Below are positions 6,062 to 64,000 of a stretch of DNA of 64,000 nucleotides, one piece after another (position 1 is the first letter of the stretch; each line of letters opens with the position of its first letter). Source of the stretch: a phage; assembly GCA_012178725.1 (NCBI GenBank), contig GCA_012178725.1_3030.1, one strand, 5' to 3'. Under the pieces are notes generated by a model that worked only from the letters and a program-made list of their open reading frames with translations, did not search any database and was not told the DNA's origin. The translations under genes were made by a program, and so were the position numbers.

Positions 6062-6094
6062 TTTCTAATCTCCGTAATTCTGTATCAGTAGTTG

Positions 6095-6131
6095 ATAGTT
6101 GTATAGTACCACAGTATGCTTTGGTTGTAAA
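6095..6131 (-). promoter_or_regulatory. T4-type early promoter upstream of motA
   Basis: Minus strand GTTTAC-18-TGGTACTATACA, conserved leader ACAACTATCAACTAC..., SD GGAGATTAG. Confidence 0.6.
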
Positions 6132-6147
6132 CCGTTTTGTGAAAAAA

Positions 6148-6183
6148 TTTTTAAAATAAAAAAGGGAGAGCCTCGGCTCTCCC
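6148..6183 (-). terminator. Rho-independent terminator downstream of gene 52 / small membrane ORF
   Basis: GGGAGAGCC...GGCTCTCCC hairpin followed by TTTTTTATTTT on minus strand. Confidence 0.6.
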
Positions 6184-9101: not shown

Positions 9102-9215
9102 TCACATAAATCCAAAGTAAACGTTTAATACATCAATCATTAAAACGATTGGGAATATACTCAAAACAACTAAAATTATAATTATATTCCATATAGCTTT
9201 AATAATCTTTTTCAT
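9102..9215 (-). CDS. Small membrane protein, 37 aa
   Basis: MKKIIKAIWNIIIILVVLSIFPIVLMIDVLNVYFGFM from internal ATG; GGAGGAAC SD; early-promoter cassette immediately upstream. Confidence 0.4.
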   Translation of the reverse strand: MKKIIKAIWNIIIILVVLSIFPIVLMIDVLNVYFGFM

Positions 9216-9220
9216 TTTGT

Positions 9221-9273
9221 GTTCCTCCGTGGTTGATAGGGTAATAATACCACAGAGGAACAGTCTTGTAAAC
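9221..9273 (-). promoter_or_regulatory. Early-promoter cassette with SD-complementary spacer
   Basis: GTTTAC AAGACT GTTCCTCTGTGG TATTATTACC...CCACGGAGGAAC ACAAA ATG. Confidence 0.55.
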
Positions 9274-9280
9274 AACTTTT

Positions 9281-9379
9281 TTAAAAATATTCGTAATAAA
9301 TGTGAATACCAATCACTACTGCCGAAACTTGCGCAACCCACCACGCACAAGCAATAAGTACAGAATTAAAAATTTTCAT
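9281..9379 (-). CDS. Micro membrane ORF, 32 aa
   Basis: Hand-translated MKIFNSVLIACAWWVAQVSAVVIGIHIYYEYF*; ATGA-coupled to upstream micro-ORF. Confidence 0.25.
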   Translation of the reverse strand: MKIFNSVLIACAWWVAQVSAVVIGIHIYYEYF

Positions 9380-9462: not shown

Positions 9463-9515
9463 AGTTCAATCTCAGCGATTTTCATTTTATTCTCCAAATC
9501 TGTATCAGTATTTGA

Positions 9516-9551
9516 TAGTTGTATAGTACCACGGTCCTTGTGGTATGTAAA
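9516..9551 (-). promoter_or_regulatory. T4-type early promoter
   Basis: GTTTAC ATACCACAAGGACCGTGG TACTATACAACTATCAA...GGAGAATAAA ATG. Confidence 0.55.
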
Positions 9552-9567
9552 CCATTTTGTGAAATTT

Positions 9568-10125
9568 TTAAATGGAAAGATACCATCCATTGTAGTTGCT
9601 TTTTCTTACAACCTTACGAAGGTCTTCTCTATCACCGATGAACTTCGGAGTGTACTGGATGACACCTGGATGAATTTCTTTAGTGTTGAATATAATTATA
9701 CAGTCCGCGACCTGGTGATTTAGAATGGGCCCTAGATTTATTCCAGAACCATATGGATACTCTCCGCTGCATCCTGTTGTTACAGAAATCCAACGTGAGT
9801 CAGTTTGATGTGTCTTAACTTCTACACGGAGCCCGCAATATTTTGGATGTGCTAAAACATCCCATGCATATGTGTACGGATCATTGACATCTTCTTGGCC
9901 TTTATTGACATATCCGCTTAGCCAATCTGCTACAAAAAACTCTGCGTACACAGCGATACGGCATCTTTCGATAACTTCTGTCTTATCCTGATTTGGGTTT
10001 TGTTTTAAAGAGTATCTTGCAGTATCAGCAATTTTGACCTTCATTTCACCAGTCAAGTCACTGTTCGATAGGGTAAATGTCGGAATCTGAAATAGTCTCT
10101 GTAGCCCCGGATTCGTTTTCTGCAT
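9568..10125 (-). CDS. denB: Endonuclease IV DenB
   Basis: 185 aa; T4 DenB size and position next to rIIB. Confidence 0.88.
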   Translation of the reverse strand: MQKTNPGLQRLFQIPTFTLSNSDLTGEMKVKIADTARYSLKQNPNQDKTEVIERCRIAVYAEFFVADWLSGYVNKGQEDVNDPYTYAWDVLAHPKYCGLRVEVKTHQTDSRWISVTTGCSGEYPYGSGINLGPILNHQVADCIIIFNTKEIHPGVIQYTPKFIGDREDLRKVVRKSNYNGWYLSI

Positions 10126-11373: not shown

Positions 11374-13551
11374 TTAGGCCGCAAGGGCCTTCATAGTTTT
11401 AGCGATTTGGGAAACTTCATCATCACTTAAAGAGTTGCGATAACCGATGAAGTCGGAAACAATACGGAATTTCTTGGTAAACTCAGCAACCATTTTATCA
11501 CTGTTTTTTGAAGCATTATTTGATAATACATCAAAAAGATTAGTTACTGTCCAGATGTCATGACCGATGGTATCTTTTCCACCATTAAAATATACACCGC
11601 GCAATGAACTAACTATATTAGCGAGTCGTGTATATTCTTCAGAAACTTCATCTGTACTGAAGTACTTCATCATAAAATCTAGTTCAGGATACTTGATAAT
11701 TTTATCAATATATCGTTGAGCTGAACTTGAATAACCTACGTACTTATCATAATCTACATCATCAAAAGCATCTACATATAAATCACGCAAAGCTTCAAAA
11801 ATACATTGGCACTGACCGAGTTCTTTTACCTTTTTCTGTAAAAGCGGACGAATAACATAAAATTCATTAATGCCAATAAGATTAGCCATACGAATCAAAA
11901 TATTCATAGATGGATGACAAAGAGATGTAGTACCATCCATAGAGAAAATATCAGAACGATGCATATACGCTACATAACCAGTAATTTCATCTGCTTCTGA
12001 TGTGAGCGTAAATAGTTCCTCTTTTTCCCATCGCCCATCTTTAATTTCAAATTTAAATGCTGTAGCAGCTTTAGGACGAGGAGCTTTACTTTTAACTACC
12101 TTTGGAATATAGCTTTTAACTAAAGCTTCAATTTCTGACAAATAATGAATGTTAACTTCATCACTTTCAAACATCGCCATAATATCAGGAAGTAAATCAA
12201 TCTGCGATTCTACTTCCGGATTAATAAACAGAAGACGCTCATTGTGATGAATATTCAAAGTGTTATTAAATTCACTATCATCTAACGCGTGTGCTAATCC
12301 ACGGACAATATTAACACGATTTTTAATATTATCAATAACGATATTAATTTTTGTTGCATTAATACCAAACAGACGATAACTTGATGCAACGGCTGAAGTT
12401 TCATGACTTTGCTTAATGCGCTTCAGTCGAGGGTCAAGATTTACTTCATACACAACTCCTGCATTACATAACTTACTATCAGGTTCAAACATGCTTTGCA
12501 TCTTCTTATATGACAGATTTTTAGTCGTAAATTTGACTGAATTACTAATCATATAATCTCGAGCAGAATATCCCATCTTCATCAATTCACGATATGTGTG
12601 ACGAGGAGATGTAGATTCTTTAAATCGTTTTACATCTTCATTAAATGCTTTCTCACTGAGTTCTTTAACTCGTTCAATAATATTTTTACGAGTGCGATCA
12701 TCCAGTGAAAGAGCCTCGCGAGATGGAGCAATATCAAGTGAACCCATTGGAAACTTAATGTAATTCACTTCATTGCGAATGCTTAGCCAGTTACGGTCTC
12801 TAATAACACCATCGATAGGATAAACAATACCGCCATAGATAGCATACAATCCGCCGCGATCAGGCCAGTATCTTTCTGGATTTACACCGTAATAGTCATC
12901 AAAATCTGGAAAATAATCAATTTCGCGGTCAAGACCATTAATGATAGCCAAATCTTTGAATGGTCGCATGATATAAGAAACTTCATAAGCAAAGTTTCTA
13001 AAGTCTTTTTCTTCAACTGGAACTACAATTTCAATACCAGTTTTATCATCTGGACCCATTTCTTTTACGAATGTAGGTTTAATCTGTGGACCATCACCAT
13101 CCATATAAGCTACATAACCACGAATTTCACCTTTATGATACGAAGTAATACTAAATGTATCAGTATAACTAAACGGAGATTTAGAACCTAAACCAAATCC
13201 GCCAATGAAATCGTTAGATTCAGCCTTAGATGAACTGAAGTATGAATTATACAACCCAGGAGAATTATCATCACCTTGAATATCAAAATCACTCATACCC
13301 GGACCAAAATCTCGACAAACAAATCGTGGGTCTAAACGTCCAGGAATTTGTATGATAAATTTTTCAGGATTTCCATTAAGTGCATGAGCATCAATCATGT
13401 TAGTAATCAATTCACGGACTACTGCGCGAATCTTGTTTGTATACAAATCAGATGATAGAATTTTAAATACTTTAGGATTTGCTGCGATGCTAAATGCTTT
13501 TGATTTAGAACCATTACCAAGAATTGTTTCTTTTTCAGTGGTGATAATCAT
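11374..13551 (-). CDS. rIIA: rIIA protein
   Basis: 725 aa (T4 rIIA size); N-terminal GHKL-ATPase-like motifs ([17 protein letters not shown]). Confidence 0.95.
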
Positions 13552-13561
13552 AATTTCCTCA

Positions 13562-13765
13562 TTAATTCATATTACGTTTAATAACTTCGGCAACTTCTAG
13601 TAGTTCATCTTTAGTTGCAGTGTCGGATTGAATTTTATCTCTAATATCTTTAAAGCGGTTTTTAAATTCTTCGGCTTCTCCCATATCGAAAAAGCGTTGA
13701 ATGATTCTATATTCTCGATGAACTGCTTTATCAAAAAGTTCTAAATTTACTTTATATGATTTCAT
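13562..13765 (-). CDS. Hypothetical protein (rIIA.1-like)
   Basis: 67-aa ORF; early promoter GTTTAC-18-TATAAT upstream. Confidence 0.55.
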
Positions 13766-17448: not shown

Positions 17449-17545
17449 TTTATTCTCCAAGTTGTTTTCTGTATCAGTAGTTGATATTGATATAGTACCA
17501 TAATCAACTACTGATGTATATAGTTTTATGAAAAAATTTTAAACT

Positions 17546-18037: not shown

Positions 18038-18110
18038 AATTATCTCTCACTTGTTAAAAAGATTTTATACTCCGCAGGACCATTATACTCTGGTCCCAAG
18101 AGTTTGTAAA

Positions 18111-18611
18111 CTAGCTTACACGAACATTAATCACTGCGCTGCGAGGAACTACAGAGTACTCTCCAGCATGAACTACGTTCAGAAGTTCAACACCATCTTC
18201 AATCCACTGATCAGTTACCCAACCGCCAATCGGATTCGCGAATGGACGACGAATATAAACTGCCTTACACAACAAATCAGTCGGGTCTTCAATTTTTTCA
18301 ACTGGTGTTACATACATAGAAACTAAATCCATATCAATATGGGATTTTTCTTGTTCTTCTTTTTCAATTTCTGTCAATAAATTGAAATCTTCTTCATAGA
18401 TGATGAATGATGATACCCTTCCATAATAGTTTCTAATTTCCATGTACACTGTACCAATGAGAATTCCGCTATTAACACTAATAACAGTAAAAGGATATCC
18501 GCCAGTTGTACCAAGAAGTTCCCAAAACTTGCTATCAGTCGTATTCGACATTGTCTGGAAATCAATTTCAGATGGTTTTTTCATTTGATACGTAGTATTA
18601 ATTTTAATCAT
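18111..18611 (-). CDS. MotB paralog
   Basis: 166 aa; C-terminal ...GGWVTDQWIEDGVELLNVVHAGEYSVVPRS vs MotB ...AYITDQWVEDGVKLYNAVFLGTYKVIPES. Confidence 0.55.
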   Translation of the reverse strand: MIKINTTYQMKKPSEIDFQTMSNTTDSKFWELLGTTGGYPFTVISVNSGILIGTVYMEIRNYYGRVSSFIIYEEDFNLLTEIEKEEQEKSHIDMDLVSMYVTPVEKIEDPTDLLCKAVYIRRPFANPIGGWVTDQWIEDGVELLNVVHAGEYSVVPRSAVINVRVS

Positions 18612-18620
18612 AATTTTCCT

Positions 18621-19133
18621 TTAATCTAAGGTAATAAAGCCTTTTAATTCGGCATGCGATTTGCGAAACATTACTTGATGCCCACCAATGATAACTTGAT
18701 CATCTGGCACTTCATAAATCGCAATGTACATTCCACGATCTTTTAAGTCTTCACGCTCTTCTCGAGTAAACCATCTCATTATATCATATTCACTAGCGAA
18801 AGCAAAATGATATAATGCAATAAACCACAATGGAATATAATTTTCAATTCGTGAATAATCTTTATTCCATTTAGTTTTAATAGCATCATTAGCATTTTCA
18901 ACTAATAACTTATCATCGTGCGGAATAGGAATACTTTCATGACTTTCATAATTATCGCTATGATGATGAAATGACGATGAATTAATACCGCAAAATTTTA
19001 GCCAAGTTCGAGTTTTCATAGAATCAAATCCACGATAAGGAGTTGATTGAACACATAACTCTTGCCTAATTTTCATTATACCACTATCATCATTTAATGC
19101 GCTAAACGATGATTCAACACGATAAATTTTCAT
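18621..19133 (-). CDS. Hypothetical protein
   Basis: 170 aa from internal ATG (MKIYRVESS...) with GAGGATAATAAA SD. Confidence 0.5.
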   Translation of the reverse strand: MKIYRVESSFSALNDDSGIMKIRQELCVQSTPYRGFDSMKTRTWLKFCGINSSSFHHHSDNYESHESIPIPHDDKLLVENANDAIKTKWNKDYSRIENYIPLWFIALYHFAFASEYDIMRWFTREEREDLKDRGMYIAIYEVPDDQVIIGGHQVMFRKSHAELKGFITLD

Positions 19134-19196
19134 TTTATTATCCTCAGTAGCTATGGTGTTATAATACCACAACTGACCGAGGAAGTAAACAACTTT

Positions 19197-23714: not shown

Positions 23715-24334
23715 TCAACTACCTCAATATCATAAACTTTAAATGTTCCAAATGAATCGTGTAATTTTTCTTTTGAAATAGAAGTTATTCTATACTTTCC
23801 AATTGGAATCATCCATTCTTGTTCACGCACAATCATCATTAAGTTATCAGTACGCTCTGAATCTAATCCATCAGTATCTTCATACGTGTACTTAAACTCA
23901 GTATTAGGAGAAGAAAGTATAATATCGCTGATATGGTCAGAATAATTAAAAGCTTTATTAGTTTTTAAGCGAAGTATTATTTTAGTAAAATATTCAGCAT
24001 AAGAAAAAGAACATGCTGTGAGCAAACTAGTAGTAAATGAATCTACTCTATTCGTTGAAAACACTTCTCCAACTTGTAAATCTTTAATAAGTTCTTCTGT
24101 TGATTTTGATATACCACGATATAGCTGATAAGGAGATTTAGTTAAATGCTTTTTAATGATTTTATTCAACTGCCTATGAAGAGCTTCATTCTTTTTGGCT
24201 TCCATACATTGCCAAAGAATTGACTGTTCAAAGTCAGTAAATTTTTCACAGACCTTTTTATACATATCATATTGAAAATCAACGCTTTCAGCTTTTATAG
24301 ATAACTGTTCAACATCTGCAAGATTAATAATCAT
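23711..24334 (-). CDS. modB: ADP-ribosyltransferase ModB
   Basis: 207 aa; LYRG ... FSTNRV ... EQEWMIP; overlaps modA by 4 nt. Confidence 0.85.
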   Translation of the reverse strand: MIINLADVEQLSIKAESVDFQYDMYKKVCEKFTDFEQSILWQCMEAKKNEALHRQLNKIIKKHLTKSPYQLYRGISKSTEELIKDLQVGEVFSTNRVDSFTTSLLTACSFSYAEYFTKIILRLKTNKAFNYSDHISDIILSSPNTEFKYTYEDTDGLDSERTDNLMMIVREQEWMIPIGKYRITSISKEKLHDSFGTFKVYDIEVVE

Positions 24335-24401
24335 GATAGCCTCCGTATACTTCAGAAGCTATCATATCATTGTTAGAAAGGAAAGTAAACAACTTTTTGA
24401 A

Positions 24402-28676: not shown

Positions 28677-28841
28677 TTACTCTTCTTTTTCTTTAGATTC
28701 CTCTTTTTTCTTTTTAGGAATCTGTTCAGGACCTTTATTTACTACAGCGCCTGATGTTGTTCCAGTAGAGATATTTTCAGGATTACCACCTGAATCTCCA
28801 GCGACCATATCTTCTTTGATAAATTCTTTATATGTTTTCAT
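28677..28841 (-). CDS. Small Lys/Glu-rich protein (61.1-like), 54 aa
   Basis: Hand-translated MKTYKEFIKEDMVAGDSGGNPENISTGTTSGAVVNKGPEQIPKKKKEESKEKKR*; TAATATG junction. Confidence 0.4.
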   Translation of the reverse strand: MKTYKEFIKEDMVAGDSGGNPENISTGTTSGAVVNKGPEQIPKKKKEESKEKEE

Positions 28842-28842
28842 A

Positions 28843-28888
28843 TTAACCTCTATTCATAAAAGCATTAAAAATTTGGTCATCAATAGAT
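28843..28888. repeat. 46-bp direct repeat, copy 1 (3' end of the 118-aa ORF)
   Basis: ttaacctctattcataaaagcattaaaaatttggtcatcaataga; 45/46 identical to copy at 29201..29246. Confidence 0.8.
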
Positions 28889-29199
28889 GGTGCAGTAATA
28901 TTTTCTGCATCATTTAGCAAATCATTAATTTCATCAAATAGCATAACACATGTACCTTTATTTCCTGTAATTGTTACTGCGCAATTACGAACGTTTTCTT
29001 TATTAAATTTTAGGTTAATATTTTCGTAATGAAAATCCTTTAATGCTGAATATATTTTTAAAATAAAATTGTCTTTTACTACAATAAACCCAACCTCACT
29101 ATTAAAACGTGGTTCATGGAAACTGTAATAAACCTTTTCATCTATAAAATCGTATGAAATTTTTTCCATTTTTAAATATGAAAATTCAGAACTATACAT
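28843..29199 (-). CDS. Paralog of the C-terminal half of the adjacent 61.2-like protein
   Basis: 118 aa; shares F(I/V)VKDN motif and identical tail SIDDQIFNAFMNR with the 208-aa neighbour; 46-bp near-exact DNA repeat at the 3' end. Confidence 0.5.
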   Translation of the reverse strand: MYSSEFSYLKMEKISYDFIDEKVYYSFHEPRFNSEVGFIVVKDNFILKIYSALKDFHYENINLKFNKENVRNCAVTITGNKGTCVMLFDEINDLLNDAENITAPSIDDQIFNAFMNRG

Positions 29200-29200
29200 A

Positions 29201-29246
29201 TTAATCTCTATTCATAAAAGCATTAAAAATTTGGTCATCAATAGAA
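29201..29246. repeat. 46-bp direct repeat, copy 2 (3' end of the 61.2-like ORF)
   Basis: ttaatctctattcataaaagcattaaaaatttggtcatcaataga. Confidence 0.8.
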
Positions 29247-30439: not shown

Positions 30440-30622
30440 TTATCCTCGGCAATCCACTTCACATACTTTCTTGTCATCAATGAAAGCTTTAACTAATGCT
30501 TTATTAACTTCAGCATACTGAGTAGTAGCCCATTGAACGTCATCTTTCATCATTGTGATTTCTTTAGTAAACATGCTTTCATTCTTAAACCATCCCATAA
30601 AAACTACCTTTACCAATTCCAT
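30440..30622 (-). CDS. dmd: Dmd antitoxin (RnlA/LsoA inhibitor)
   Basis: 60 aa, matches remembered T4 Dmd (MELVKVVFMGWFKNESMFTKEITMMKDDVQWATTQY...). Confidence 0.85.
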   Translation of the reverse strand: MELVKVVFMGWFKNESMFTKEITMMKDDVQWATTQYAEVNKALVKAFIDDKKVCEVDCRG

Positions 30623-30680
30623 AACAATCTCCTCATTTAACCAACAAGACTACTATACCATAGTCTCGTCAGCTTGTAAA

Positions 30681-32108
30681 CTAAAATTTTAATTCATTCG
30701 CCAAAGCATCTAACTGAGCTCGAGTGGATTCATTTCTTTGATAGCGATTCTGCTCAGCCTGAATCTGTTGTGAACCTGCTACTTCGTTCACTTCAGTTGG
30801 AGTAGAATCTTGTTCAATTTCTACCCATTTCTGATTTCCCTTTTGAACACCCATCAAAAACTTATTCCACTTATTCTTATCGCCATATCGTGATTTGATT
30901 TGCTTAATGAGTTGTTGTTCAGCAGCTGCTAGCTCCTCGGTTTCAATGACCGCAAGCATAAAATCGGCTGTTGCTGGAAGACCGGCAGATTCTGCAATAT
31001 CGCTCATGTTAACATCAGAAGAGTCCCAAGCTTGTTTACCGACCTGTGCTGCAGTCCAAAGAACAGTTTCGGTTTCAACAGCCAGAGCACGCAATTCCTC
31101 TGCAATAGCTTTAACAGTTGTGTAACTATTTTCTGAATAAACTCGGATGCGACAAGATTTACAAATACCCAGATAATCTACAATAATGATTGTTGGAACA
31201 AAATTCTTCTTGAGCTTCAATTCATTCAAGAGAGACCTGAATGTATTAGCGTCTGCTCCACCAGTAGGATACTGTTTAACGATTAAACGACCAAGAGTAG
31301 ATTTCTCACGCCATTTTTCCATTTTTCCTTTATACTCAGCGTAAGAAATATGCCCATCATCAATGTCATCAAGAGAAACATCAAGCATATTAGCATCAAT
31401 ACGCTTAGCACAGACTTCTTCTGCCATTTCCATGGAAATGTAAAGAACATTATGTCCGAGCTGCAAATAATCTGCTGCCAATGAACACAGACCTAATGAC
31501 TTACCAACGTTAACGCCAGCCATTAAAACGTTCAGTGTTCCAGTCTCAGCTCCGCCTTTAGTAATTTTATTTAGAATTCTGAGTTTAAATGGAACTTTAC
31601 GAGCTTTATTCATATAAGATAGCCAGCGTGCTTCGTAGTCATCCATCCAATCATGACCAACGTAGCTATCAAATGAAATTGATAATGCTTGGCGCATGAT
31701 GTCAGGAATAGCACCAACATCCGGCATTTTCTTATTTCGTTTTTCCGGAGGAAGCTCAGCATTAGTTTGAATTTCGATTATTTTAGACGTAGCATTAAAC
31801 ATCGCCCTTTGCTGAACATATTTTTCTGTTTCTTTTACTAACCAGCTGTGGTCTTCTGGAGAATCAGCCAGTTTTGAAATAAGTGTTTTTACACCAGAAT
31901 ATTCTGTTTCAGTAAATGAACTATTTTCTAATGCAACATTTAACGCATTAATAGATGGAACGCTATGGTACTCATTAACATGAGATTTAATTAATTTGAA
32001 TGTATTTTTAGCTGGACCACTTTCAAAATATTCTGAATCCATATATGGCCAAACTTTTGAAAAATAAGCTTGATCAAATATAAGATGAGAAAGAATAATT
32101 TCTACCAC
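30681..32108 (-). CDS. 41: Replicative DNA helicase gp41 (DnaB family)
   Basis: 475 aa; Walker A GVNVGKS; T4 gp41 size. Confidence 0.95.
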   Translation of the reverse strand: MVEIILSHLIFDQAYFSKVWPYMDSEYFESGPAKNTFKLIKSHVNEYHSVPSINALNVALENSSFTETEYSGVKTLISKLADSPEDHSWLVKETEKYVQQRAMFNATSKIIEIQTNAELPPEKRNKKMPDVGAIPDIMRQALSISFDSYVGHDWMDDYEARWLSYMNKARKVPFKLRILNKITKGGAETGTLNVLMAGVNVGKSLGLCSLAADYLQLGHNVLYISMEMAEEVCAKRIDANMLDVSLDDIDDGHISYAEYKGKMEKWREKSTLGRLIVKQYPTGGADANTFRSLLNELKLKKNFVPTIIIVDYLGICKSCRIRVYSENSYTTVKAIAEELRALAVETETVLWTAAQVGKQAWDSSDVNMSDIAESAGLPATADFMLAVIETEELAAAEQQLIKQIKSRYGDKNKWNKFLMGVQKGNQKWVEIEQDSTPTEVNEVAGSQQIQAEQNRYQRNESTRAQLDALANELKF

Positions 32109-35446: not shown

Positions 35447-35698
35447 TCATTCTTTCTCTCTGATGATAATTACCTGATTTGGATGTGCAGACTTTTTGGT
35501 TTCACCCGCAATTGACCAAATGAATGTAATAAACCAACCAATAATTGACCAATTAAACAGTAAAGATGTGAAAAAGATTCCTACTGTCGATTTTGACCCA
35601 CGCATCAAGGCGATAAACCATGGAAGCATGTATATAATAATAGCCAACACACCTGAAACTAAAACCATAAAAATTGAACCTGCTACTAAAGTTTCCAT
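35447..35698 (-). CDS. imm: Superinfection immunity protein Imm
   Basis: 83 aa, two TM helices; T4 Imm size and position. Confidence 0.88.
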   Translation of the reverse strand: METLVAGSIFMVLVSGVLAIIIYMLPWFIALMRGSKSTVGIFFTSLLFNWSIIGWFITFIWSIAGETKKSAHPNQVIIIREKE

Positions 35699-35705
35699 GT
35701 TTTCC

Positions 35706-36086
35706 TCACTTAGTCAAATTTTTTACACATGAATTATAAGAATTCACTACATACTCCATCGGAGCATTTTTACCAGTACGCCATTGGTAATTATTAGCCC
35801 AATTAGCCCAAAGCTCGGCGCAGTAGTTTTCAATTTTTTCTTCGCGTGTAATTACATCCGAATTACGATATGCTTGAGCAGATTCATCTGGACGAATAGC
35901 TTCGTCAAAATTCGCCTGCATTTGTTCGACTGTTTGCTTTGGAGCTTCTTTATAACACTTGACATTAGGATTATAAAACTTGCTTGAACAGTTTACAATT
36001 TTTCCTGCATCAGACTGATTTACTACCGGTCCTTGATCTACACAACCAGTAAGACCTAATGCAATAACCAAAATAGTGATTTTCAT
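35706..36086 (-). CDS. Predicted lipoprotein (imm.1-like)
   Basis: MKITILVIALGLTGC: signal peptide plus lipobox. Confidence 0.5.
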   Translation of the reverse strand: MKITILVIALGLTGCVDQGPVVNQSDAGKIVNCSSKFYNPNVKCYKEAPKQTVEQMQANFDEAIRPDESAQAYRNSDVITREEKIENYCAELWANWANNYQWRTGKNAPMEYVVNSYNSCVKNLTK

Positions 36087-36098
36087 AATAATTTCCTC

Positions 36099-36350
36099 TT
36101 AAAACTTAACAAATAACTTTAAAGCATCTTCAGTTTTAATTCCTTTTCTTACACCCATAACAGAAATTGGCTGTGACTGAAATTTTCCTTTACCATTATA
36201 AATTTCTAATCCAGTCACCATTCCATTTTGTTCTATAATACCGTAAGTGTTACCTTCATTTTCAAATTCTTTAACTTTAAAAAGTTTATTCGCTTTTTCT
36301 GCGTTAACAACTTTTAAATTTTGAATAAAATTAGTTTGAATATTTTTCAT
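36099..36350 (-). CDS. Hypothetical protein
   Basis: 83-aa ORF with GGAGGAAC SD and early-promoter cassette upstream. Confidence 0.45.
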   Translation of the reverse strand: MKNIQTNFIQNLKVVNAEKANKLFKVKEFENEGNTYGIIEQNGMVTGLEIYNGKGKFQSQPISVMGVRKGIKTEDALKLFVKF

Positions 36351-36355
36351 TTTGT

Positions 36356-36408
36356 GTTCCTCCGTAGTTGATAGTTGTATAGTACCACAGAGGAACGGTC
36401 TTGTAAAC
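36356..36408 (-). promoter_or_regulatory. Early-promoter cassette with SD-complementary spacer
   Basis: GTTTAC AAGACC GTTCCTCTGTGG TACTATACAACTATCAA CTACGGAGGAAC ACAAA ATG. Confidence 0.55.
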
Positions 36409-36483
36409 AGTTTTGTGAAAAAATTTTTAATGAATCCAAAAGGTCCAGAATCATCTGTTTTTCATAAGTATAGATTTATATTA

Positions 36484-36513
36484 CTTGTATGAAAAAGGGA
36501 CCCGGAGGTCCCC
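36484..36513 (-). terminator. Rho-independent terminator downstream of gene 43
   Basis: GGGACC-TCCG-GGTCCC followed by TTTTTCAT. Confidence 0.6.
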
Positions 36514-36525
36514 AGATTTATTCTA

Positions 36526-39222
36526 TCAGCCAAACAGGAAGTCTAACGAAGCTTTTTCTTCATAGTCCATACCAGCCGATTCACACATACCCGCAAGCGG
36601 TTTAACAAACGATTTTTGGAACAAAGTTGAGTAGTCAATCCAAGACAGTACGTCAGAACGAATTTCTTTTGGAAGTTCTGTGCCCGACGGCCAAGCAATA
36701 CACTTGTCACCAAATGGATTTCCTTCACGTAATGGAAGAACCATTACCTTATTTCCATCCAAAATTGGAGCTACACCTAAACCGCTAACAGCTCGACGAT
36801 AAGTTAGCACACCACGAATATGGAACGGGCATTTAAATCCTGGCCAACCTTTATCATCATATTTCGCTATATCGTTCGCAGTTTTTACTTCAGCAATAAC
36901 TTTATAGTCAAGTTGACGATATTCTTTCTCGAAGTTCTTGTAATATTCTTGGACAGACTCTTCACCTTCCTGAAGAATACGACGAATACTTTCTTCAAGA
37001 GCTTCTTGGACCGCTTTAGGCGTTGAACTTTGCTGAGTTTCCATACCCATGATTTTTAGATGCGGTTCAGCAAATCGCTTATCTTCCATATCATAAACAT
37101 TCAGAGCATAACGCTTTTTCGCTTTCCAAAATCCACCAACGCCCTTTGAACCAAGCGGAGGGCAAGAAATAGCTTCACGGTCCATATGCATCAGATGCTC
37201 GCGGTTATTCATATAATCACATAACTCACGATATGCAACATCAATCATAGGTTCCATCTTTTTCTTACCGAACTGATTCATAAATTCAACTAAATCGTTC
37301 TGCTCTTTGAATCGGTCAAGACCAACTTTTTCAATAACTTTATCTACACAAACATATACCGAATCAGTATCACCTGCTGCAATGAAATCTTCACCATTAG
37401 TTCCGCATACTTTATTCAGATATTCATTAATTTTACGAGCAATCCACTGAATACCGACTTGGCCAAAAATTGTGATAGCAGTAGCATTTCGCAAATCATA
37501 GTAACGGAAATGAATATTACCAAGAGCACCATAAAGACTGTTAATGAGAATTTTACGGTTCAGCTGATTTGTGTTAGCAAGTGTAGCAGCTTTTTCACAT
37601 TCCTCAATCAGACTATTGAGAACAGATTCAGTATAATTCGATAGCTCATTTAAGAAATCATCACTGAACTTAACATATCGTTCAACTTCTGGTTTAGTTG
37701 AACAGGACCCTGCGCCTTTCATAATAATCTTTTTAATAGCTTCGGCATTCATTTCTTCAGCGAACATTTTCTTTTTCCAATCTTTACGCTGGAAAAATAC
37801 TTTAGCGATTTCCTTTGGAATGATACCTTCTTGATGCTTATCATACATCCATCCATTCGGAGAACAAGAATATTCATCACTTGGTTTAGGAGCTGTTCCT
37901 GCGATATATTCATGAATTGGATGAACTTTAAACTGTCCACGAATAGTCTCAGGACTAATGTTAACCTGACGAATAATGCTCGGATACAGAGACGTCAAGT
38001 CAAAACTCATAATATATCGACGAGCAATTGGTTTAGGTTCAAACACAAATGCACCCGGAAAACTCTGTTTAACGTGCGAACCTTGTTGAGGAATAACCTT
38101 ATGTTCACCTTTCAATGAGTTAAAAATAATAGCATCCCAAGTTTTAATAGGACTCATTACACCAGAAAAAGGCATTTTAGCGTAATAAGACATACTTAAA
38201 ACTAGATCGATAAACCCGCGAATTTTATCAATTGCTTGAACTGATTCTACGTCAATGATGTTATAACTAATGTATCGTTGATGATTAGTCTCACGAAGTT
38301 TATTAATAGGACCGTCGTATGGTAATTTACCTTTTTTGGTTTCATGTTGAGCAACTGATTCCAAAGAGAATGACGGCAAATTAGTAAAAGCGAATTTCTT
38401 GTACAAATCTAAATAATCAAGAATAGATACGCCATCAATAGAATAAATTTCTTTGCTACCGTACATATTTTGAATTAGTTTAGATTTTACTCGACCGATT
38501 GGAGAGAAACGTTTCATACTGCGTTCGCCCAGAATCATTTTAACACGATTCATGATATACGGAACGTCAAATCCCTCAATATTCCAACCAGTAAAAATAG
38601 CAGGTCGTTTCTGTTCCCAGAGATTGATATATTCCATGAGCATATCACGCTCATTATCGAATGGCATATAAATTACTCGGTCAAGAATTTCTTGAGGAAC
38701 TTCATCACCACCTTCACAGTCAAGCTTAGCAGCTAACTTTGCATCCCATTTTGATACTGAACCGTACATTGAATTCAAAAGGTCGAAAACATAAAAACGA
38801 TCGTCAATTGAATCGTAATGAGTGATAGCATCAATTTCATATTCAGCTTTCATTGGGTCAGGAAATTTATCACCAGTAACCTCAATGTCACAGTTAGCTA
38901 CACGAACAAATTTTCGGTCATAAACAATTTCTGAACCATATGTATCACTGATATAAGCGAGTTTAAAATCGTTCATACCGAGAGCTTCAAGACCGATGTC
39001 TTCCATTCGCTTCATCCAATCTCGAGCATCTTTCATTGATGGAAATTTTTGAGGAGCACAGTTTTTACCATAGATGTCTTTGTATTTTGACTCTTCCTTA
39101 CAATGCCTAAACATAGTCGGAAGATATTCTACTTCACGGGTACGTTCCTTTCCATTTTCATCAATATAACGTTCAACAATGTTATTTCCGACTGTTTCAA
39201 TAGAGATATAAAATTCTTTCAT
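36526..39222 (-). CDS. 43: DNA polymerase gp43 (family B)
   Basis: 898 aa; exonuclease and polymerase motifs (YGDTDS); T4 gp43 size. Confidence 0.97.
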   Translation of the reverse strand: MKEFYISIETVGNNIVERYIDENGKERTREVEYLPTMFRHCKEESKYKDIYGKNCAPQKFPSMKDARDWMKRMEDIGLEALGMNDFKLAYISDTYGSEIVYDRKFVRVANCDIEVTGDKFPDPMKAEYEIDAITHYDSIDDRFYVFDLLNSMYGSVSKWDAKLAAKLDCEGGDEVPQEILDRVIYMPFDNERDMLMEYINLWEQKRPAIFTGWNIEGFDVPYIMNRVKMILGERSMKRFSPIGRVKSKLIQNMYGSKEIYSIDGVSILDYLDLYKKFAFTNLPSFSLESVAQHETKKGKLPYDGPINKLRETNHQRYISYNIIDVESVQAIDKIRGFIDLVLSMSYYAKMPFSGVMSPIKTWDAIIFNSLKGEHKVIPQQGSHVKQSFPGAFVFEPKPIARRYIMSFDLTSLYPSIIRQVNISPETIRGQFKVHPIHEYIAGTAPKPSDEYSCSPNGWMYDKHQEGIIPKEIAKVFFQRKDWKKKMFAEEMNAEAIKKIIMKGAGSCSTKPEVERYVKFSDDFLNELSNYTESVLNSLIEECEKAATLANTNQLNRKILINSLYGALGNIHFRYYDLRNATAITIFGQVGIQWIARKINEYLNKVCGTNGEDFIAAGDTDSVYVCVDKVIEKVGLDRFKEQNDLVEFMNQFGKKKMEPMIDVAYRELCDYMNNREHLMHMDREAISCPPLGSKGVGGFWKAKKRYALNVYDMEDKRFAEPHLKIMGMETQQSSTPKAVQEALEESIRRILQEGEESVQEYYKNFEKEYRQLDYKVIAEVKTANDIAKYDDKGWPGFKCPFHIRGVLTYRRAVSGLGVAPILDGNKVMVLPLREGNPFGDKCIAWPSGTELPKEIRSDVLSWIDYSTLFQKSFVKPLAGMCESAGMDYEEKASLDFLFG

Positions 39223-40235: not shown

Positions 40236-41195
40236 TCACTTCCACTGCATTTCACATGCTAATTGAATGAAAAGATAAGCTAAATGTAATTCAGTGTTAG
40301 CTGCAATACCATGATACTGATTATTTTCGCCGACAATTTCGTACATACGAATAATACTCTGTGGAGTTACACGTGAATAGATTTCTTCGGCAAGTTTACC
40401 CACGAACCACGAATAATCGGCTGCATATTTTGGTGCTAAAGCTCTGAGTTGTTTAACATCTTTATTTTTGAGAGACTCAAGAACATCATCAATAGCACCA
40501 CGATCGTTAGTAACCAGTGATAAAATACCAGCATCCAAAACACCTTTAGATGAATAACTATCGAGCTCGCCAATAGTTTTACGAAAATCAGGAAAATTCT
40601 TTTTAACCAAAGCTGCTACAACTTTCATATCAGCTATAGCAATTCCTTCATGCTTACAGATTTCAGTCAATCGACGAATCATCTGCTTCATCATTTCAAT
40701 TTTATCTTCATCGGTCGGTTGACCGAATGTAATAACTCGGCAGCGTGACTGGAGAGGTTTAATAATACCATCAATATTGTTAGCAGTAATAATAATACTA
40801 CAGTTTGAACTATAAGCTTCCATAAAGGAACGAAGATGTCGCTGAGACTCTGCTAACCCTGAGCGGTCAAATTCATCAATAACGATTACTTTTTGACGAC
40901 CATCAAATGAAGCTGCGCTGGCAAAATTAGTCAAAGGACCACGAACGAAATCAATTTTACAATCTGATCCATTCACAAACATCATATCAGCATTTACATC
41001 ATGACACAATGCTTTTGCTACAGTTGTTTTACCTGTTCCTGGAGAAGGAGAATGAAGAATAATATGTGGAATCTTACCTTTACTTGTAATAGATTTAAAG
41101 GTTTCTTTATCAAAGGCGGGAAGAATACATTCATCGATAGTAGATGGACGATATTTCTGTTCAAGAATGTGTTCTTTTTCATTTACGGTAATCAT
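40236..41195 (-). CDS. 44: Clamp loader ATPase gp44 (AAA+)
   Basis: 319 aa from [20 protein letters not shown]...; Walker A GTGKTT; GAGGAAATT SD. Confidence 0.95.
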
Positions 41196-41246
41196 AATTT
41201 CCTCATTCAAGTTTTAGTGTAAATTATAAAGGGCCGAAGCCCTTTA

Positions 41247-42631: not shown

Positions 42632-44314
42632 TTAAACCATTACAGTAAATCGACCAACTTTCTTCATTTGAAGATGCTGACCATATTCTTGCGGGTCATG
42701 GTCTTTATGTGAAATTATAAAAACATTAGTGTTTTTCATTGAATTTATAATATTAGCTACACCTTTAATACCTTCGGCATCAAATGACCCATCAAACACT
42801 TCATCGAGTATTAATGTACTAATACTAACACCAGATACAATAGAAGCAATATCACGCCAAGTAAATAAAAGAGCAATATCAATTCGTGCTTTTTCACCTT
42901 CACTAAATGAAGCATAACTAAAATCTTCACGACCACGGGATTTAATTGTCTCATTAAATTCTTCATCTAATGTAAACACATAATCCGCTTCCATTATTTT
43001 AAGATAATGGTTAATCTGCTTATTAAATAATGGAATGTACTTTTTAATAATAGCACCTTTAATACCAGAATCTTTGAGCATATCAGTCAAAATTCCTCTG
43101 TGGTATTTTTCCATTACTAAATTAGTTTTTGTCTTAACAATTTTATCAAGTTCTTCTTGAAGCAGTGCTATTTCATCAGCATGGTCAATAAACTCAGAAG
43201 ATGCTTTTTCTATAGCCGCTTTAACCTTTTTAGCTTTATCTACCGTCGTGATTAGAGATTGCTTTTTATTGCGAATATCATTTGCCAACGACTGTTGGGT
43301 TTTAATATTATCTCGGTATTCATCAACAAGAACTTTTAAATTATCACGGTGTGTTGAAAGCTGTTCAAACGAATGCGTACATTCAGAAACTTTATCTTTA
43401 ATTTTAGAAACAACTTTATCACCGGAACTTAATTGTGACAAGCAGGTTGGACATAATCCACCTTCGTGATACATATTAATGACTTTATTATACGAGTCAA
43501 TTTTTGATTTAATTAAAACTGCTTCTTGACCGATTTTATTAAATGCATCAGTCGGGTCTTCATCTAAAACAATATTAACTAATCTTTCATTAGCTTCTTC
43601 TATTTCCGATTTTAGCGTTCTAGCTTCTTTTGCCAAATCATCATACATATTTTGAAGACGAGTAAGGTTGTCACCCGTTAATTTTTTCTGGCGTTCAACG
43701 TTATCATTATATATTTTAATTTGTTGGATAATACTATCTTTTTTAACATCAAGCACTTGGTTTTGTGAATTTAATTCACGTATTAGTGCTTTATTAAGCT
43801 TATCCATTTCAGCTAATGTTCCTACCTCAAGCAGGTCTTCCACAAGCTTTCTTCGCGCAGGGGTCGACAAACCCATGAAAGGGGTATACCCTGCTGTACC
43901 AAGGACAACAATCTGCTTGAAACTGGCATATGACATTCCGATAAGCTGTTCAAATTCTGCTTGGAAATCTTTACTGCTGGCAGATTCATTAAGACGTGTA
44001 CCGTTAACGGTGATTTCGAAAACGTTCGGTTTTTGTCCTCTTTTGATATAGTACTTTTTCTCATCATATTCCATCCACAGTTCAACTAAAAGTTCTTTCT
44101 TATTTGTGCTGTTTATTAATTGACCTTTCTTTACATCACGAAATGGCTTACCAAAAAGCCCAAATGTGATGGCTTCTAACATAGTAGACTTACCACCGCC
44201 ATTTCGGCCAGTAATAAGAGTTTTTTGAACCTTATCTAATTGAATGTCAACTCCATTTTGACCAACTGACATTATATTTTTATATTTTACTCTATTAAGT
44301 TTAAATGATTTCAT
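42632..44314 (-). CDS. 46: Recombination nuclease subunit gp46 (SbcC/Rad50-like ATPase)
   Basis: 560 aa; Walker A GRNGGGKST, coiled-coil middle with CPTC zinc hook, C-terminal signature/Walker B. Confidence 0.95.
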   Translation of the reverse strand: MKSFKLNRVKYKNIMSVGQNGVDIQLDKVQKTLITGRNGGGKSTMLEAITFGLFGKPFRDVKKGQLINSTNKKELLVELWMEYDEKKYYIKRGQKPNVFEITVNGTRLNESASSKDFQAEFEQLIGMSYASFKQIVVLGTAGYTPFMGLSTPARRKLVEDLLEVGTLAEMDKLNKALIRELNSQNQVLDVKKDSIIQQIKIYNDNVERQKKLTGDNLTRLQNMYDDLAKEARTLKSEIEEANERLVNIVLDEDPTDAFNKIGQEAVLIKSKIDSYNKVINMYHEGGLCPTCLSQLSSGDKVVSKIKDKVSECTHSFEQLSTHRDNLKVLVDEYRDNIKTQQSLANDIRNKKQSLITTVDKAKKVKAAIEKASSEFIDHADEIALLQEELDKIVKTKTNLVMEKYHRGILTDMLKDSGIKGAIIKKYIPLFNKQINHYLKIMEADYVFTLDEEFNETIKSRGREDFSYASFSEGEKARIDIALLFTWRDIASIVSGVSISTLILDEVFDGSFDAEGIKGVANIINSMKNTNVFIISHKDHDPQEYGQHLQMKKVGRFTVMV

Positions 44315-61951: not shown

Positions 61952-62479
61952 TTATGCGAGTACCGTCTTTAACCGTTCTTCAAACTTCCGAAGAGTATTC
62001 TGGCGTTCAGCTCTTTGCTTTTTGTAAGTTTCAATACGCTCTGAAATGAGAGTGTATCGTTCATTTACTGATTCTTTCATAAAATCAGGAATTTCACGAG
62101 AAGCTTTAATCTCATCAAATTTATCAATAACAGCTTGCTCTTCAGCAATTAAGTTATCATACATCAAAATATCTTTCTTGATGAACTCAATATCTTCTTG
62201 AGTTACACGAGATAACTTAGATGCTTTATCCTTTTTGTACTGTTCGTTAGTATCACGAGACCAGTGTAATGTACGATTTTTATTCGTATTTTTGTAAATT
62301 TCTACAATACCAATCTCATCGATGATAACAATCCAATTCCAACGAGATTTATAAATTTGTCCTCCATCAACCGTGATTTCATCTCCAATTGAGATGTCAT
62401 TAAAGAACTTGCTTTGTGCTTCAGATTTAAATTTACCATCGTTGTAATTTACCAAGTTGAAAATATCTTTAGCATTCAT
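61952..62479 (-). CDS. Hypothetical protein
   Basis: 175-aa ORF; GGAGGAAC SD and early-promoter cassette upstream. Confidence 0.5.
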   Translation of the reverse strand: MNAKDIFNLVNYNDGKFKSEAQSKFFNDISIGDEITVDGGQIYKSRWNWIVIIDEIGIVEIYKNTNKNRTLHWSRDTNEQYKKDKASKLSRVTQEDIEFIKKDILMYDNLIAEEQAVIDKFDEIKASREIPDFMKESVNERYTLISERIETYKKQRAERQNTLRKFEERLKTVLA

Positions 62480-62484
62480 TTTCT

Positions 62485-62537
62485 GTTCCTCCGTAGTTGA
62501 TAGTTGTATAGTACCACAGAGGAACAGTCTTGTAAAC
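62485..62537 (-). promoter_or_regulatory. Early-promoter cassette with SD-complementary spacer
   Basis: Near-identical to the 36356..36408 cassette. Confidence 0.55.
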
Positions 62538-62539
62538 CG

Positions 62540-62854
62540 CTAAAAGAAACTTCTTTCACAATTTTTTCCACTGAACCACGCGCTCACTGCTTTCTTAGTC
62601 TCAGGAGCAGTGTTATCCATAAACCATTCAAAGGCAGCCTTTTTATGATTCTGGAGGGCTTCTCGGGCTTTAATCTGCTCACGGTCTATTAACACTAACA
62701 TATGAGCCTTTCTTGTCACCAAGGGCTTCTTATGATTTTTTGAATACTCCCAGTCATTTGTCCATCGCATTGTCGTTGCAAATTGAAATACAGCTTCTTT
62801 AATTTTAGTTTCGTAAATTTCACGAGCCTTTGAGTATAACATCATTACCTCCAT
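62540..62854 (-). CDS. Hypothetical protein
   Basis: 104-aa ORF. Confidence 0.5.
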   Translation of the reverse strand: MEVMMLYSKAREIYETKIKEAVFQFATTMRWTNDWEYSKNHKKPLVTRKAHMLVLIDREQIKAREALQNHKKAAFEWFMDNTAPETKKAVSAWFSGKNCERSFF

Positions 62855-62943: not shown

Positions 62944-63924
62944 TTATTTCAGAAGAGTAACCTCAGCAATTTCTTCCCAACCATTTTTGTCGGTCATAAT
63001 AAAGTCAGCAAGATAAAGAGCAGTACGCAGTGAAACATTGCGTAAACGATTAACATTGACTTTCATCCATGATAATGCTTTATAAGTTTCTTCATCAGAA
63101 AGACCGCGCTTTTGCATCATGTCAGTTGAAAGAATAACATCTTCAACCCTGACCATAATTTCTTCATTAGTGTGAACACCCAAATCCAAATAAACTGAGC
63201 GGGACACTAATGCTTGTAAATGTGGAGCAAGTTTAGTACCACGGTCTAATTCGCGGTCAATGTCAACGTTTGTGATAAAAACAATCGTTCCTTTAAATTC
63301 AAACTCACGCTCAATGCCTTTTTCTTCTAAGTAAGAAGATGCGGTGCTCCAGCAGACTTTACGGGTCTCTCCAGTGTCCAGAGCAGCTTTCAGAAGATTA
63401 AGAATGTCCATATCAGAGAAAACATCCACATCATCAATCAAAAGGACAGAATTCTCTTCACGATTATTCCAAAGCTGCTCATAAAGACCAATACCAGAGA
63501 TTTTACCATTAATGCTTTTATATTCAATGTATCCAATATCATTTGCTTTATTTAAAGCTTTATCTAAAGAATACGTTTTACCAATACCTGCTGCACCAGA
63601 GATAATTAATGAACGAATGTTTCCGTTAATAATACCATTCGTCATCATTCCCATAACATTAAATCTTTTATTAATGCGGGTTTTCATATCTTCATACGAT
63701 TCTTTAACTTCTTCAACTTTTACACCATCATATGAAATGTCTGATTTGTAAACCCAAACACCGCGACGTTTACCGTCAATTTCAACAAAAACTTTACCAT
63801 CTCCTTGTGCATCTACCGGAGCATTATCTGGGAACCATTCGCCTAAGAGCTCAAAAGTTCCAGAGATTTCTTTACCGAAGTAGATACCCTTATTGATAGT
63901 TACAGTTTTCATTTTATTCTCCAA
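62944..63924 (-). CDS. AAA-type ATPase (nrdC.10-like)
   Basis: 326 aa; Walker A GAAGIGKT, Walker B LLIDDVD; early promoter upstream. Confidence 0.6.
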   Translation of the reverse strand: MENKMKTVTINKGIYFGKEISGTFELLGEWFPDNAPVDAQGDGKVFVEIDGKRRGVWVYKSDISYDGVKVEEVKESYEDMKTRINKRFNVMGMMTNGIINGNIRSLIISGAAGIGKTYSLDKALNKANDIGYIEYKSINGKISGIGLYEQLWNNREENSVLLIDDVDVFSDMDILNLLKAALDTGETRKVCWSTASSYLEEKGIEREFEFKGTIVFITNVDIDRELDRGTKLAPHLQALVSRSVYLDLGVHTNEEIMVRVEDVILSTDMMQKRGLSDEETYKALSWMKVNVNRLRNVSLRTALYLADFIMTDKNGWEEIAEVTLLK

Positions 63925-63939
63925 ATCCGTATCAGTTGA

Positions 63940-63976
63940 TAGTTGTATAGTACCATAAAGCTTTATGCTTGTAAAC
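63940..63976 (-). promoter_or_regulatory. Early promoter with palindromic spacer
   Basis: GTTTAC AAGCATAAAGCTTTATGG TACTATACAACTATCAACTGATACGGATTTGGAGAATAAA ATG; spacer holds 14-bp palindrome CATAAAGCTTTATG. Confidence 0.5.
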
Positions 63977-64000
63977 AGTTTTGTGAAAAATTTTTGAAAT

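Follow-up and report, generated by a model that had tools for sequence, protein, structure and literature searches.

A repeated early-promoter cassette in a T2/T4-like phage whose promoter spacer is predicted to pair with its own Shine-Dalgarno sequence

The repeat family and the systems it resembles

Promoter-early stem-loop (PeSL) cassettes, first described in RB49/phi1 (Arbiol 2010, PMC2839356) and then in T4/PST (Comeau 2014, PMC4122927), are among the closest described relatives of the element considered here, which occupies positions 36356-36408 of a 64,000-nucleotide (nt) stretch of phage DNA (contig GCA_012178725.1_3030.1; the whole stretch is called the window below). The consensus in T4/PST is TTTACW-N17-TAYWAT, with a Shine-Dalgarno (SD) sequence and a start codon at the 3' end (PMC4122927). 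A second precedent is provided by the T4 genes e, soc, 49 and I-TevI, whose long transcripts place the SD and AUG in a helix and are untranslated, while initiation at a promoter within the structure leaves the 5' strand out of the RNA, which is then shorter and is translated (Uzan and Miller 2010, PMC3014915). Two other systems are comparable: the T4 'uber' early promoters, with their UP/-35/TGn/-10 arrangement (Hinton 2010, PMC2988021), and the nuclease RegB, which cuts GGAG in early ribosome sites and is kept out by secondary structure (PMC3014915). We suggest that the element, one of three copies and called copy B here, is probably a PeSL-type early promoter/leader cassette in which the promoter spacer acts as an anti-SD for read-through RNA.

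The window comes from a T2/T4-like Tequatrovirus with its genes oriented on the minus strand, and the region around copy B is 97-99.8% identical to T2-like and T4-like Tequatrovirus genomes. On the minus strand, 36356-36408 reads GTTTACAAGACCGTTCCTCTGTGGTACTATACAACTATCAACTACGGAGGAACA, and the whole of copy B from 36408 to 36348 reads GTTTACA-AGACCGTTCCTCTGTGG-TACTAT-ACAACTATCAACTACGGAGGAACACAAA-ATG. The first-pass annotation had described this segment as the second, near-identical copy of one at 9221-9273 (copy A). The repeat is real, and the two segments align without gaps at 46/53 identical positions (hand count); they are clearly related, so that only the word 'near-identical' is slightly generous. 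One of the seven differences lies in the spacer, one in the -10 box, four just past the -10 box (ACAA/TACC) and one in the 3' arm of the stem described below. 'Second copy' also needs correction, as the family has three members. The third, copy C, is closer to copy B than is the copy cited earlier: its segment 62485-62537 differs at one of 53 positions (52/53 identical), and at two of 62 when the comparison is run into the leader. An independent repeat finder returned the same three-copy family (9204-9287, 36339-36422 and 62468-62551), nested inside a looser seven-copy promoter family. A gapped pattern built from the non-arm parts only, with both arms left free (GTTTACAAGAC-N13-TAYTAT-N4-CTATCAAC), has three matches in the window and none in 100 shuffles. 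A partial match at 43092-43105 (+) sits inside a coding region without promoter context and was set aside as chance.

It had been proposed that the cassette idea should fall if the copies proved no more similar than the early-promoter consensus would make them. Over 62 nt from the -35 box, the cassette pairs are 96.8, 88.7 and 88.7% identical, against a mean of 44.5% (standard deviation 8.7, maximum 77.4) for the other 187 pairs that can be formed from the 20 GTTTAC early promoters of the window. Chance origin of the three-copy repeat is excluded, and the copies are far more alike than promoter consensus explains; the excess identity sits in the spacer and leader, which the consensus does not constrain. 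The placing of copy B upstream of an unrelated open reading frame (ORF) of 83 amino acids (aa), just past the gene 43 terminator, agrees with the coordinates. The ORFs downstream of the three cassettes (83, 37 and 175 aa) belong to three unrelated families (phrog_18567, phrog_3098 and phrog_2274), to none of which PHROG gives a function. Copy A is collinear with T4 ndd.4, and the ndd.4/ndd.5 exchange is a worked example in the T4/PST PeSL paper (PMC4122927); T4 nrdC.8 has the same cassette as copy C.

Each copy carries a promoter of the sigma-70 early type, TTTACA-17-TGgTAYTAT. In copy B the PeSL promoter is present as TTTACA-17-TACTAT with the TG (36407-36379), and likewise at 9272 and 62536; in the record of phage fPS-90 the homologous site is annotated 'predicted early promoter'. 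Standard spacing predicts a transcription start about 7 nt past the -10 box, which would give copy B a leader of 22 nt with GGAGG and ATG, and in all three copies GGAGG sits 8 nt ahead of ATG. AT-rich upstream elements are seen in copy B (TTAAAAATTTTTTCACAAAACT) and copy A (ATATTTTTAAAAAAGTT); the region upstream of copy C is only partly AT-rich, and an upstream ORF there reaches within 2 nt of GTTTAC. The AT-rich UP, GTTTAC, the TG-extended -10 and the extra conserved positions beyond the hexamers are shared with the 'uber' promoters, but that consensus does not account for the conserved spacer or leader. The likeness to PeSL cassettes goes further: a repeated motif of about 50-80 base pairs (bp) made up of an AT-rich region, an early promoter, a stem-loop and a 3' SD/start codon, lying before small ORFs of no known function and beside indels and ORF replacements. 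The AT-rich region, a stable predicted stem-loop and the 3' SD/start codon are all found here. Indel or replacement of the ORF between relatives is found for copy B and was not seen at copies A and C.

Predicted folding of read-through and own transcripts

The spacer GTTCCTCTGTGG is complementary to the leader segment CYACGGAGGAAC, which includes the SD, and the pairing extends to spacer GTTCCTCTGTGG(T) with leader (A)CTACGGAGGAAC. As sense RNA, copy B folds in prediction into a 13-bp stem (-19.4 kcal/mol, z-score -4.33, 0/200 shuffles as stable), copy A into a 14-bp stem (-22.5 kcal/mol, z -4.48) and copy C into a 15-bp stem (-23.6 kcal/mol, z -5.39). The loop is 15 nt in all copies and holds the -10 box and the initial transcribed sequence, and all SD bases are paired in the predicted read-through fold. 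A search of Rfam returned no family at the cassette, the sole match being a chance long non-coding RNA (E = 0.37).

The promoter's own transcript is predicted to be unstructured (0 kcal/mol). Its start is expected near 36372 in copy B, downstream of the 5' arm, with the -10 box in the loop, and it cannot form the hairpin because the 5' arm lies upstream of this predicted start site. We calculated the ensemble cost of exposing the 17 nt from the SD to the AUG, with read-through RNA entering from 120 nt upstream. Opening costs 16.4-16.6 kcal/mol in the read-through RNA of the three copies versus 1.6-4.2 kcal/mol in their own transcripts (copy B: 16.4 versus 2.1). Seven control early promoters of the window gave 3.0-8.1 kcal/mol for read-through and 1.6-6.5 kcal/mol for own transcripts. 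The label 'SD-sequestering' given in the first-pass annotation would therefore suit read-through RNA, at some 16.5 kcal/mol to open, but not the cassette's own transcript, which lacks the hairpin in these models.

The inverted repeat might instead act as DNA, either as the site of a dimeric regulator over the promoter or as a cruciform or hairpin signal for recombination. The arms do flank the -10 box, where an operator would act, and the PeSL authors left the choice between homologous and site-specific recombination open (PMC4122927). However, the folding depends on the strand. The antisense RNA of copy B reaches -12.4 kcal/mol (z -0.9), the T4 ndd.4 cassette scores z -3.7 in sense versus -0.2 in antisense, and both strands fold weakly as DNA; antisense RNA and the two DNA strands together span z -0.2 to -2.4. 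The asymmetry between sense and antisense arises because of G-U pairs: several stem positions are of this kind, and on the opposite strand they turn into A-C mismatches. On account of this difference between the strands, we rejected a palindrome or cruciform at the DNA level. The geometry, with arms of 11-13 bp set 15-17 bp apart, one of them a ribosome site, is to our knowledge unlike known operators. Function as DNA is in our judgement very improbable, and the predicted fold asymmetry points to a function in mRNA-sense RNA rather than to a cruciform or a protein-binding palindrome.

The published role of the PeSL stem-loop is transcription termination or attenuation, and the 2010 paper (PMC2839356) never uses the word 'translation'. 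On that account, the stem-loop would terminate or attenuate upstream transcription and the SD pairing would be incidental. An RB49/phi1 PeSL stem-loop equalled rrnB T1 in the strength with which it reduced lacZ read-through, and the PeSL authors describe a subclass of stem-loops 'overlapping the -10 box' (PMC2839356), which the position of the copy B stem fits; in PST the stem-loops lie just upstream of the promoter (PMC4122927), whereas the stem here reaches from the spacer into the ribosome site. Rho-dependent polarity (described in PMC2988021), which an untranslated ORF might trigger, could also attenuate read-through indirectly. Set against this, what follows the stem is ACACAAAAUG, which contains no U run, and for want of a T run after the stem an intrinsic terminator at copy B was rejected. 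A terminator scan of 36000-36700 returned the gene 43 terminator only, a loop of 15 nt is atypical of intrinsic terminators, and in every copy, as at the unrelated motB.2 promoter described below, 3' arm and ribosome site coincide exactly. We consider a terminator role improbable and suggest that, unlike the published PeSL stem-loops, this stem without a U tract reads as a translational block for read-through RNA.

A translational block of this kind would follow the logic of e, soc, 49 and I-TevI: the SD lies in a helix of the read-through RNA, here by prediction, and the internal promoter, from its predicted start, would play the same part. Those genes use late (TATAAATA) promoters, which delay expression, whereas the cassette contains no TATAAATA and has an immediate-early sigma-70 promoter, so that expression would be limited to the very early phase or to what the gene's own promoter supplies. 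Unlike in those genes, the anti-SD arm is the promoter spacer itself, and the element is repeated at three loci. By analogy, the cassette seems to work like this family without being a member of it in the temporal sense. Coordinates are collected in Table 1.

Table 1. Coordinates of the cassette copies, their parts and the genes around copy B
Feature	Position in window	Strand	Remarks
Cassette copy A	9213-9273	-	before 37-aa ndd.4 homolog (9102-9215)
Cassette copy B	36348-36408	-	G of GTTTAC through ATG of 83-aa ORF
Cassette copy C	62477-62537	-	before 175-aa nrdC.8 homolog (61952-62479)
Copy A parts	-35 9272-9267; -10 TATTAT 9249-9244; SD 9228-9224	-	
Copy B parts	-35 TTTACA 36407-36402; TG-extended -10 TACTAT 36384-36379; 17-nt spacer	-	promoter scan
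Copy B leader	SD GGAGG 36363-36359; ATG 36350-36348; predicted start near A36372	-	start from spacing
Copy C parts	-35 62536-62531; -10 62513-62508; SD 62492-62488	-	
Copy A stem	9262-9249 with 9233-9220	-	RNA fold
Copy B 5' arm, GUUCCUCUGUGGU	36384-36396	-	promoter spacer and first base of -10
Copy B 3' arm, ACUACGGAGGAAC	36356-36368	-	contains SD GGAGG
Copy C stem	62527-62513 with 62497-62483	-	RNA fold
Gene 43	36526-39222	-	ORF calling
Gene 43 intrinsic terminator	36496-36513	-	GGGGACCTCCGGGTCCC then T run; terminator scan
83-aa ORF, downstream of copy B	36099-36350	-	phrog_18567; annotated hypothetical protein T2_046
imm.1	35706-36086	-	own ribosome site GAGGAAATTATT-ATG
imm	35447-35698	-	ORF calling

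Conservation of the pairing and its recurrence at other promoters

Using a pattern that places no constraint on either arm, we gathered hairpin cassettes from T4, T2, GenBank, IMG/VR and metagenome contigs. Among the 16 distinct cassettes obtained, the 13 core pairs are kept paired in 16/16, compared with 37-56% paired in slid controls. The stem varies at five positions, each a one-sided change from G-C to G-U that preserves pairing; such variation appears to be conservative substitution and is not proof by covariation. In spacers whose 3' arm partner has been replaced, a pair-breaking G-to-A is found together with greater variability.

The pairing also recurs outside the family. A post-dexA early promoter of unrelated sequence at 19133-19190 (-) has a spacer arm that pairs with its leader and SD, with the -10 box in the loop, and precedes a 170-aa ORF whose start resembles T4 motB.2. 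Its predicted fold is of -23.7 kcal/mol (z -5.6) and opening costs 13.6 kcal/mol in read-through RNA versus 4.7 kcal/mol in its own transcript; the promoter is conserved in T4, where the sole spacer difference falls on a bulged base. At about 24330-24390 (-), the -10 region of an early promoter reading GTTTACTTTCCTTTC...TATGAT pairs with ACGGAGGCTATCAT, covering the SD and start codon (16.3 kcal/mol versus 2.7 kcal/mol for its own transcript). The signature is present in five of the 12 early promoters tested, the three cassettes and these two, all with opening costs of 13.6-16.6 kcal/mol for read-through versus 1.6-4.7 kcal/mol for own transcripts, which argues that the pairing is selected and is not an accident of one duplicated sequence.

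That the copies are simply recent duplicates, or paralogs homogenised by gene conversion, of one strong promoter with a functionless inverted repeat would explain their 89-97% identity and the clear patchwork between loci described below. It would also sit well with the lack of compensatory substitutions and with the mismatch that RB51-type phages tolerate. It would not explain why the folds reach z -4.3 to -5.4 and are specific to the sense strand, why five of five stem polymorphisms keep the pairing, why the spacer degenerates where its partner arm has been lost, or how the unrelated promoters at 19190 and 24390 came independently to the same arrangement. We regard mere duplication as unlikely.

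Other early promoters show related but different structures. Inverted repeats at the early promoters of 30620-30681 and 18050-18111 (-) enclose the -10 box alone and leave the SD out; an example, GACGAGACTATGG TATAGT AGTCTTGT (z -3.8), resembles the PeSL subclass with a stem-loop overlapping the -10 box. In a metagenome contig (L035, near 2716, +), a promoter variant has the spacer TACCGCAAGGACCGTGG and the leader CTACGGAGGAGCGG; its spacer has an A-to-G change (CCAC to CCGC) for which the leader offers a matching GCGG, and this may be a compensated two-helix hairpin.

Seven promoters of the window share the core GGTACTATACAACTATCAAC. The siblings at 6078-6154, 9498-9574, 17467-17543 and 63922-63998 (-) combine the upstream element and GGTACTATACAACTATCAAC with another leader, ...GATTTGGAGAATAAAATG, and T4 places this RegB-type leader before imm.1. 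Both kinds of leader carry a GGAG SD in an early intergenic position. The sibling leader GGAGAAUAAAA (63976, 9552, 17543) is an 11/11 match to the RegB strong-site consensus GGAGRAYARAA (Durand et al. 2006, as summarised in PMC3014915), whereas the hairpin leader GGAGGAACACA agrees at 8/11 positions of that summarised consensus (hand count) and would be paired, so protected, in long transcripts. The hairpin might serve mainly to govern RNase access: in long transcripts the leader GGAG would be shielded from RegB or another nuclease, whereas transcripts from the promoter itself would be cut and thereby shut off. RegB does cut GGAG at early sites and structure does protect (PMC3014915), and the sibling leader is a perfect match to the consensus; the partial match of the hairpin leader itself speaks the other way. 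As the principal function this seems to us quite improbable, but it is compatible with the pairing acting as a translational block and does not exclude it. The alternation of one core between hairpin and RegB-type leaders suggests two interchangeable post-transcriptional shut-off modules.

Exchange of alleles at the gene 43-imm.1 junction and between distant copies

Phage T2 has here, in this order, gene 43 (DNA polymerase), a hypothetical ORF of 83 aa, imm.1, imm and gene 42, and ORF calling in the window agrees with it. The gene 43 terminator, which carries a terminator annotation in T4 M37159 and in fPS-90, lies about 90 nt upstream of the copy B -35 box. The junction occurs in three allelic states, which have the promoter to the left and the ribosome site of imm.1 to the right in common; the latter forms the conserved right-hand boundary of a swappable ORF slot. 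State 0, found in T4 and two contigs, has the leader ACTGATACGGATTTGGAGAATGAA behind the same promoter core, joined straight to imm.1 with no ORF between. In state 1 (the window and T2), the hairpin leader is followed by the 83-aa ORF and by imm.1 with its own ribosome site GAGGAAATTATT. In state 2, a non-hairpin leader precedes an unrelated, lipoprotein-like 78-aa ORF and the same imm.1 ribosome site. The N-terminus of the 78-aa product resembles a signal peptide or lipobox (MKIV[YM]GCLAVCLVAL...). By tblastn, the 78-aa ORF (also in contigs L032 and L051) is found in 326 GenBank records and is the commonest junction allele, versus only 31 records, all Tequatrovirus and including T2, RB27, RB51 and RB68, for the 83-aa ORF, a rare allele and an accessory gene. 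As we read the sequences, state 0 is exactly what would be left by a deletion of the state-2 ORF between two ATGAAAAT repeats.

The non-hairpin allele has the spacer GTTCTTCCATGG, which is an ndd.4-type arm with one pair-breaking G-to-A and is more variable. Reciprocal chimeras of the two alleles exist. Contig L032 joins an intact 5' arm to the non-hairpin leader; RB51, RB68 and Ac3 join the broken arm to the hairpin leader and the 83-aa ORF, and their stem has an A-C mismatch (-12.4 kcal/mol, z -1.6). These chimeras place the crossovers between the -10 box and the SD, within the GGTACTATACAACTATCAAC core that the alleles have in common. The junctions of PeSL mini-circles in RB49 have been mapped experimentally to the same interval, from the -10 box to the SD/ATG (PMC2839356). 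No second cassette is found downstream of the 83-aa ORF, so the mini-circle model cannot be carried over directly to copy B. On comparison of these alleles, the cassette is a demonstrated ORF-replacement boundary among T-even phages. The portable cassette and recombination substrate foreseen in the first-pass annotation are borne out by the three junction alleles, the reciprocal chimeras and the polymorphisms common to several loci, although both ideas are already published for PeSL.

The 83-aa ORF itself appears to have travelled. Dhakavirus IME08 has a homolog of 54% identity in its mobD region and not beside gene 43 (L015, 2390-2500), preceded by a terminator and then by GTTTACA-N17-TACTAT-AGACCTATCAAC-TAATGAGGAGAACAAAATG. 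A homolog at mobD with a similar promoter and leader indicates that the ORF moved between loci across genera.

Exchange between the distant copies was sought in relatives through BLAST summaries and about 30 loci. The variants ACAA/TACC, TACTAT/TATTAT, AGACC/AGACT and AACAC/AACAG were each seen, across different phages, at two or more of the three loci, and they combine in all ways, including a hybrid TACTAT-TACC. The T4 nrdC.8 cassette, for instance, is identical to copy B of the window and not to the window's own nrdC.8 copy. Gene conversion among paralogous cassettes would leave a patchwork of this kind. The three copies are direct repeats about 26-27 kb apart, and no gross rearrangement between them was seen in these relatives, the only exchange being the gene-conversion-like patchwork; a crossover between copies would delete replication genes, including gene 43 between B and C, and would presumably be lethal. 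The comparison of gene content bounded by the cassettes, which had been proposed as a check, came out positive for the replaced ORF of copy B and negative at copies A and C themselves. No rearrangement was found at the latter two cassettes in 20-odd related contigs, and the ndd.4 and nrdC.8 hairpin copies hold position in about 20. The ORF indels near A and C (about 9480-9505 and 63906-63922) directly follow sibling promoters that carry the other leader; the inserted ORFs are of about 230-720 nt and occur after denB and before nrdC.10 (L009, L011, L055, L007, L027, L048).

We note two other repeats in the window. A 49-nt direct repeat, 98% identical (28839-28887 and 29197-29245, 358 nt apart), reads as the starts of two adjacent minus-strand genes. 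Two distant genes have a ribosome site and their first codons in common through a repeat of 46 nt that is 83% identical (13518-13563 and 41162-41207; minus strand AATGAGGAAATTATGATTATCACC...).

A possible translational insulator and its consequences

We propose that the cassette could work in the following way. A strong sigma-70 promoter (AT-rich upstream element, TTTACA, 17 nt and TG-extended TACTAT) would have a spacer that doubles as an anti-SD arm. RNA polymerase would begin in the loop of the inverted repeat, and its own mRNA, without the 5' arm, would be unstructured and translated. Transcripts arriving from upstream would carry both arms, and the resulting hairpin of 13-15 bp would hide the ribosome-binding site. 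The sources of such transcripts would be read-through of the gene 43 terminator at copy B, nrdC.10-nrdC.9 transcripts at copy C and ndd.6-ndd.5 transcripts at copy A. The ORF upstream of copy A stops at 9281, 8 nt before GTTTAC, and that upstream of copy C (an nrdC.9 homolog) at 62540, 2 nt before GTTTAC, with no terminator in either interval, so that read-through RNA is expected at both. The downstream ORF would be expressed only from its own immediate-early promoter and would be translationally insulated both from its genomic context and from the later, 'delayed-early' extended transcripts, which might bring a benefit in timing. Insulated in this way, a promoter with its ORF would be complete in itself and could be transplanted as a unit. 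The homology by which recombination could swap leader and ORF and homogenise the copies would come from the GGTACTATACAACTATCAAC core of 20-25 bp, which sibling promoters also have, and from the full repeats of 60 nt.

Several observations weigh against this proposal. The +1 position is placed by spacing only. Among the 16 cassettes there is no two-sided compensatory covariation, and as these are close relatives, for which shuffle controls are uninformative, the conservation of the stem may be owed in part to recent common descent or to gene conversion. The 83-aa ORF is present in RB51, RB68 and Ac3 despite the mismatch in the stem, which indicates that the hairpin is not indispensable at this locus. 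The promoter and leader of Dhakavirus IME08 have no significant hairpin (z -0.22, no better than shuffles), hence the hairpin does not travel with the 83-aa ORF across genera. Read-through at copy B must first escape the good terminator of gene 43, so insulation may matter little there. Finally, the chimeras at copy B could arise by ordinary homologous recombination in the flanks during co-infection, for which the cassette would need no particular property.

Much of what we describe would have been expected, as repeated early-promoter cassettes and gene shuffling in T4-type phages were described between 1994 and 2014. A literature search on the mapping of T4 start sites and on SD sequestration at early promoters returned nothing specific. 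The possible role as a translational insulator, together with the recurrence of the arrangement at unrelated promoters, is the sole, modest step beyond the literature searched, and it is a prediction from folding models. An anti-SD arm in the spacer of immediate-early promoters may even be a general T-even design that has so far gone unremarked, giving translation from the ORF's own promoter only and a plug-and-play unit of promoter and ORF; we put this forward tentatively, as a possibility on which we are somewhat doubtful. If the insulator reading is right, it would explain how dozens of small, often toxic host-takeover genes within long read-through units achieve promoter-autonomous immediate-early expression, and how genes are swapped between phages without rewired regulation. 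It would give a subset of the published PeSL stem-loops a translational rather than a terminator meaning, and it would provide a simple natural part, a promoter with an insulating leader, for synthetic phage design.

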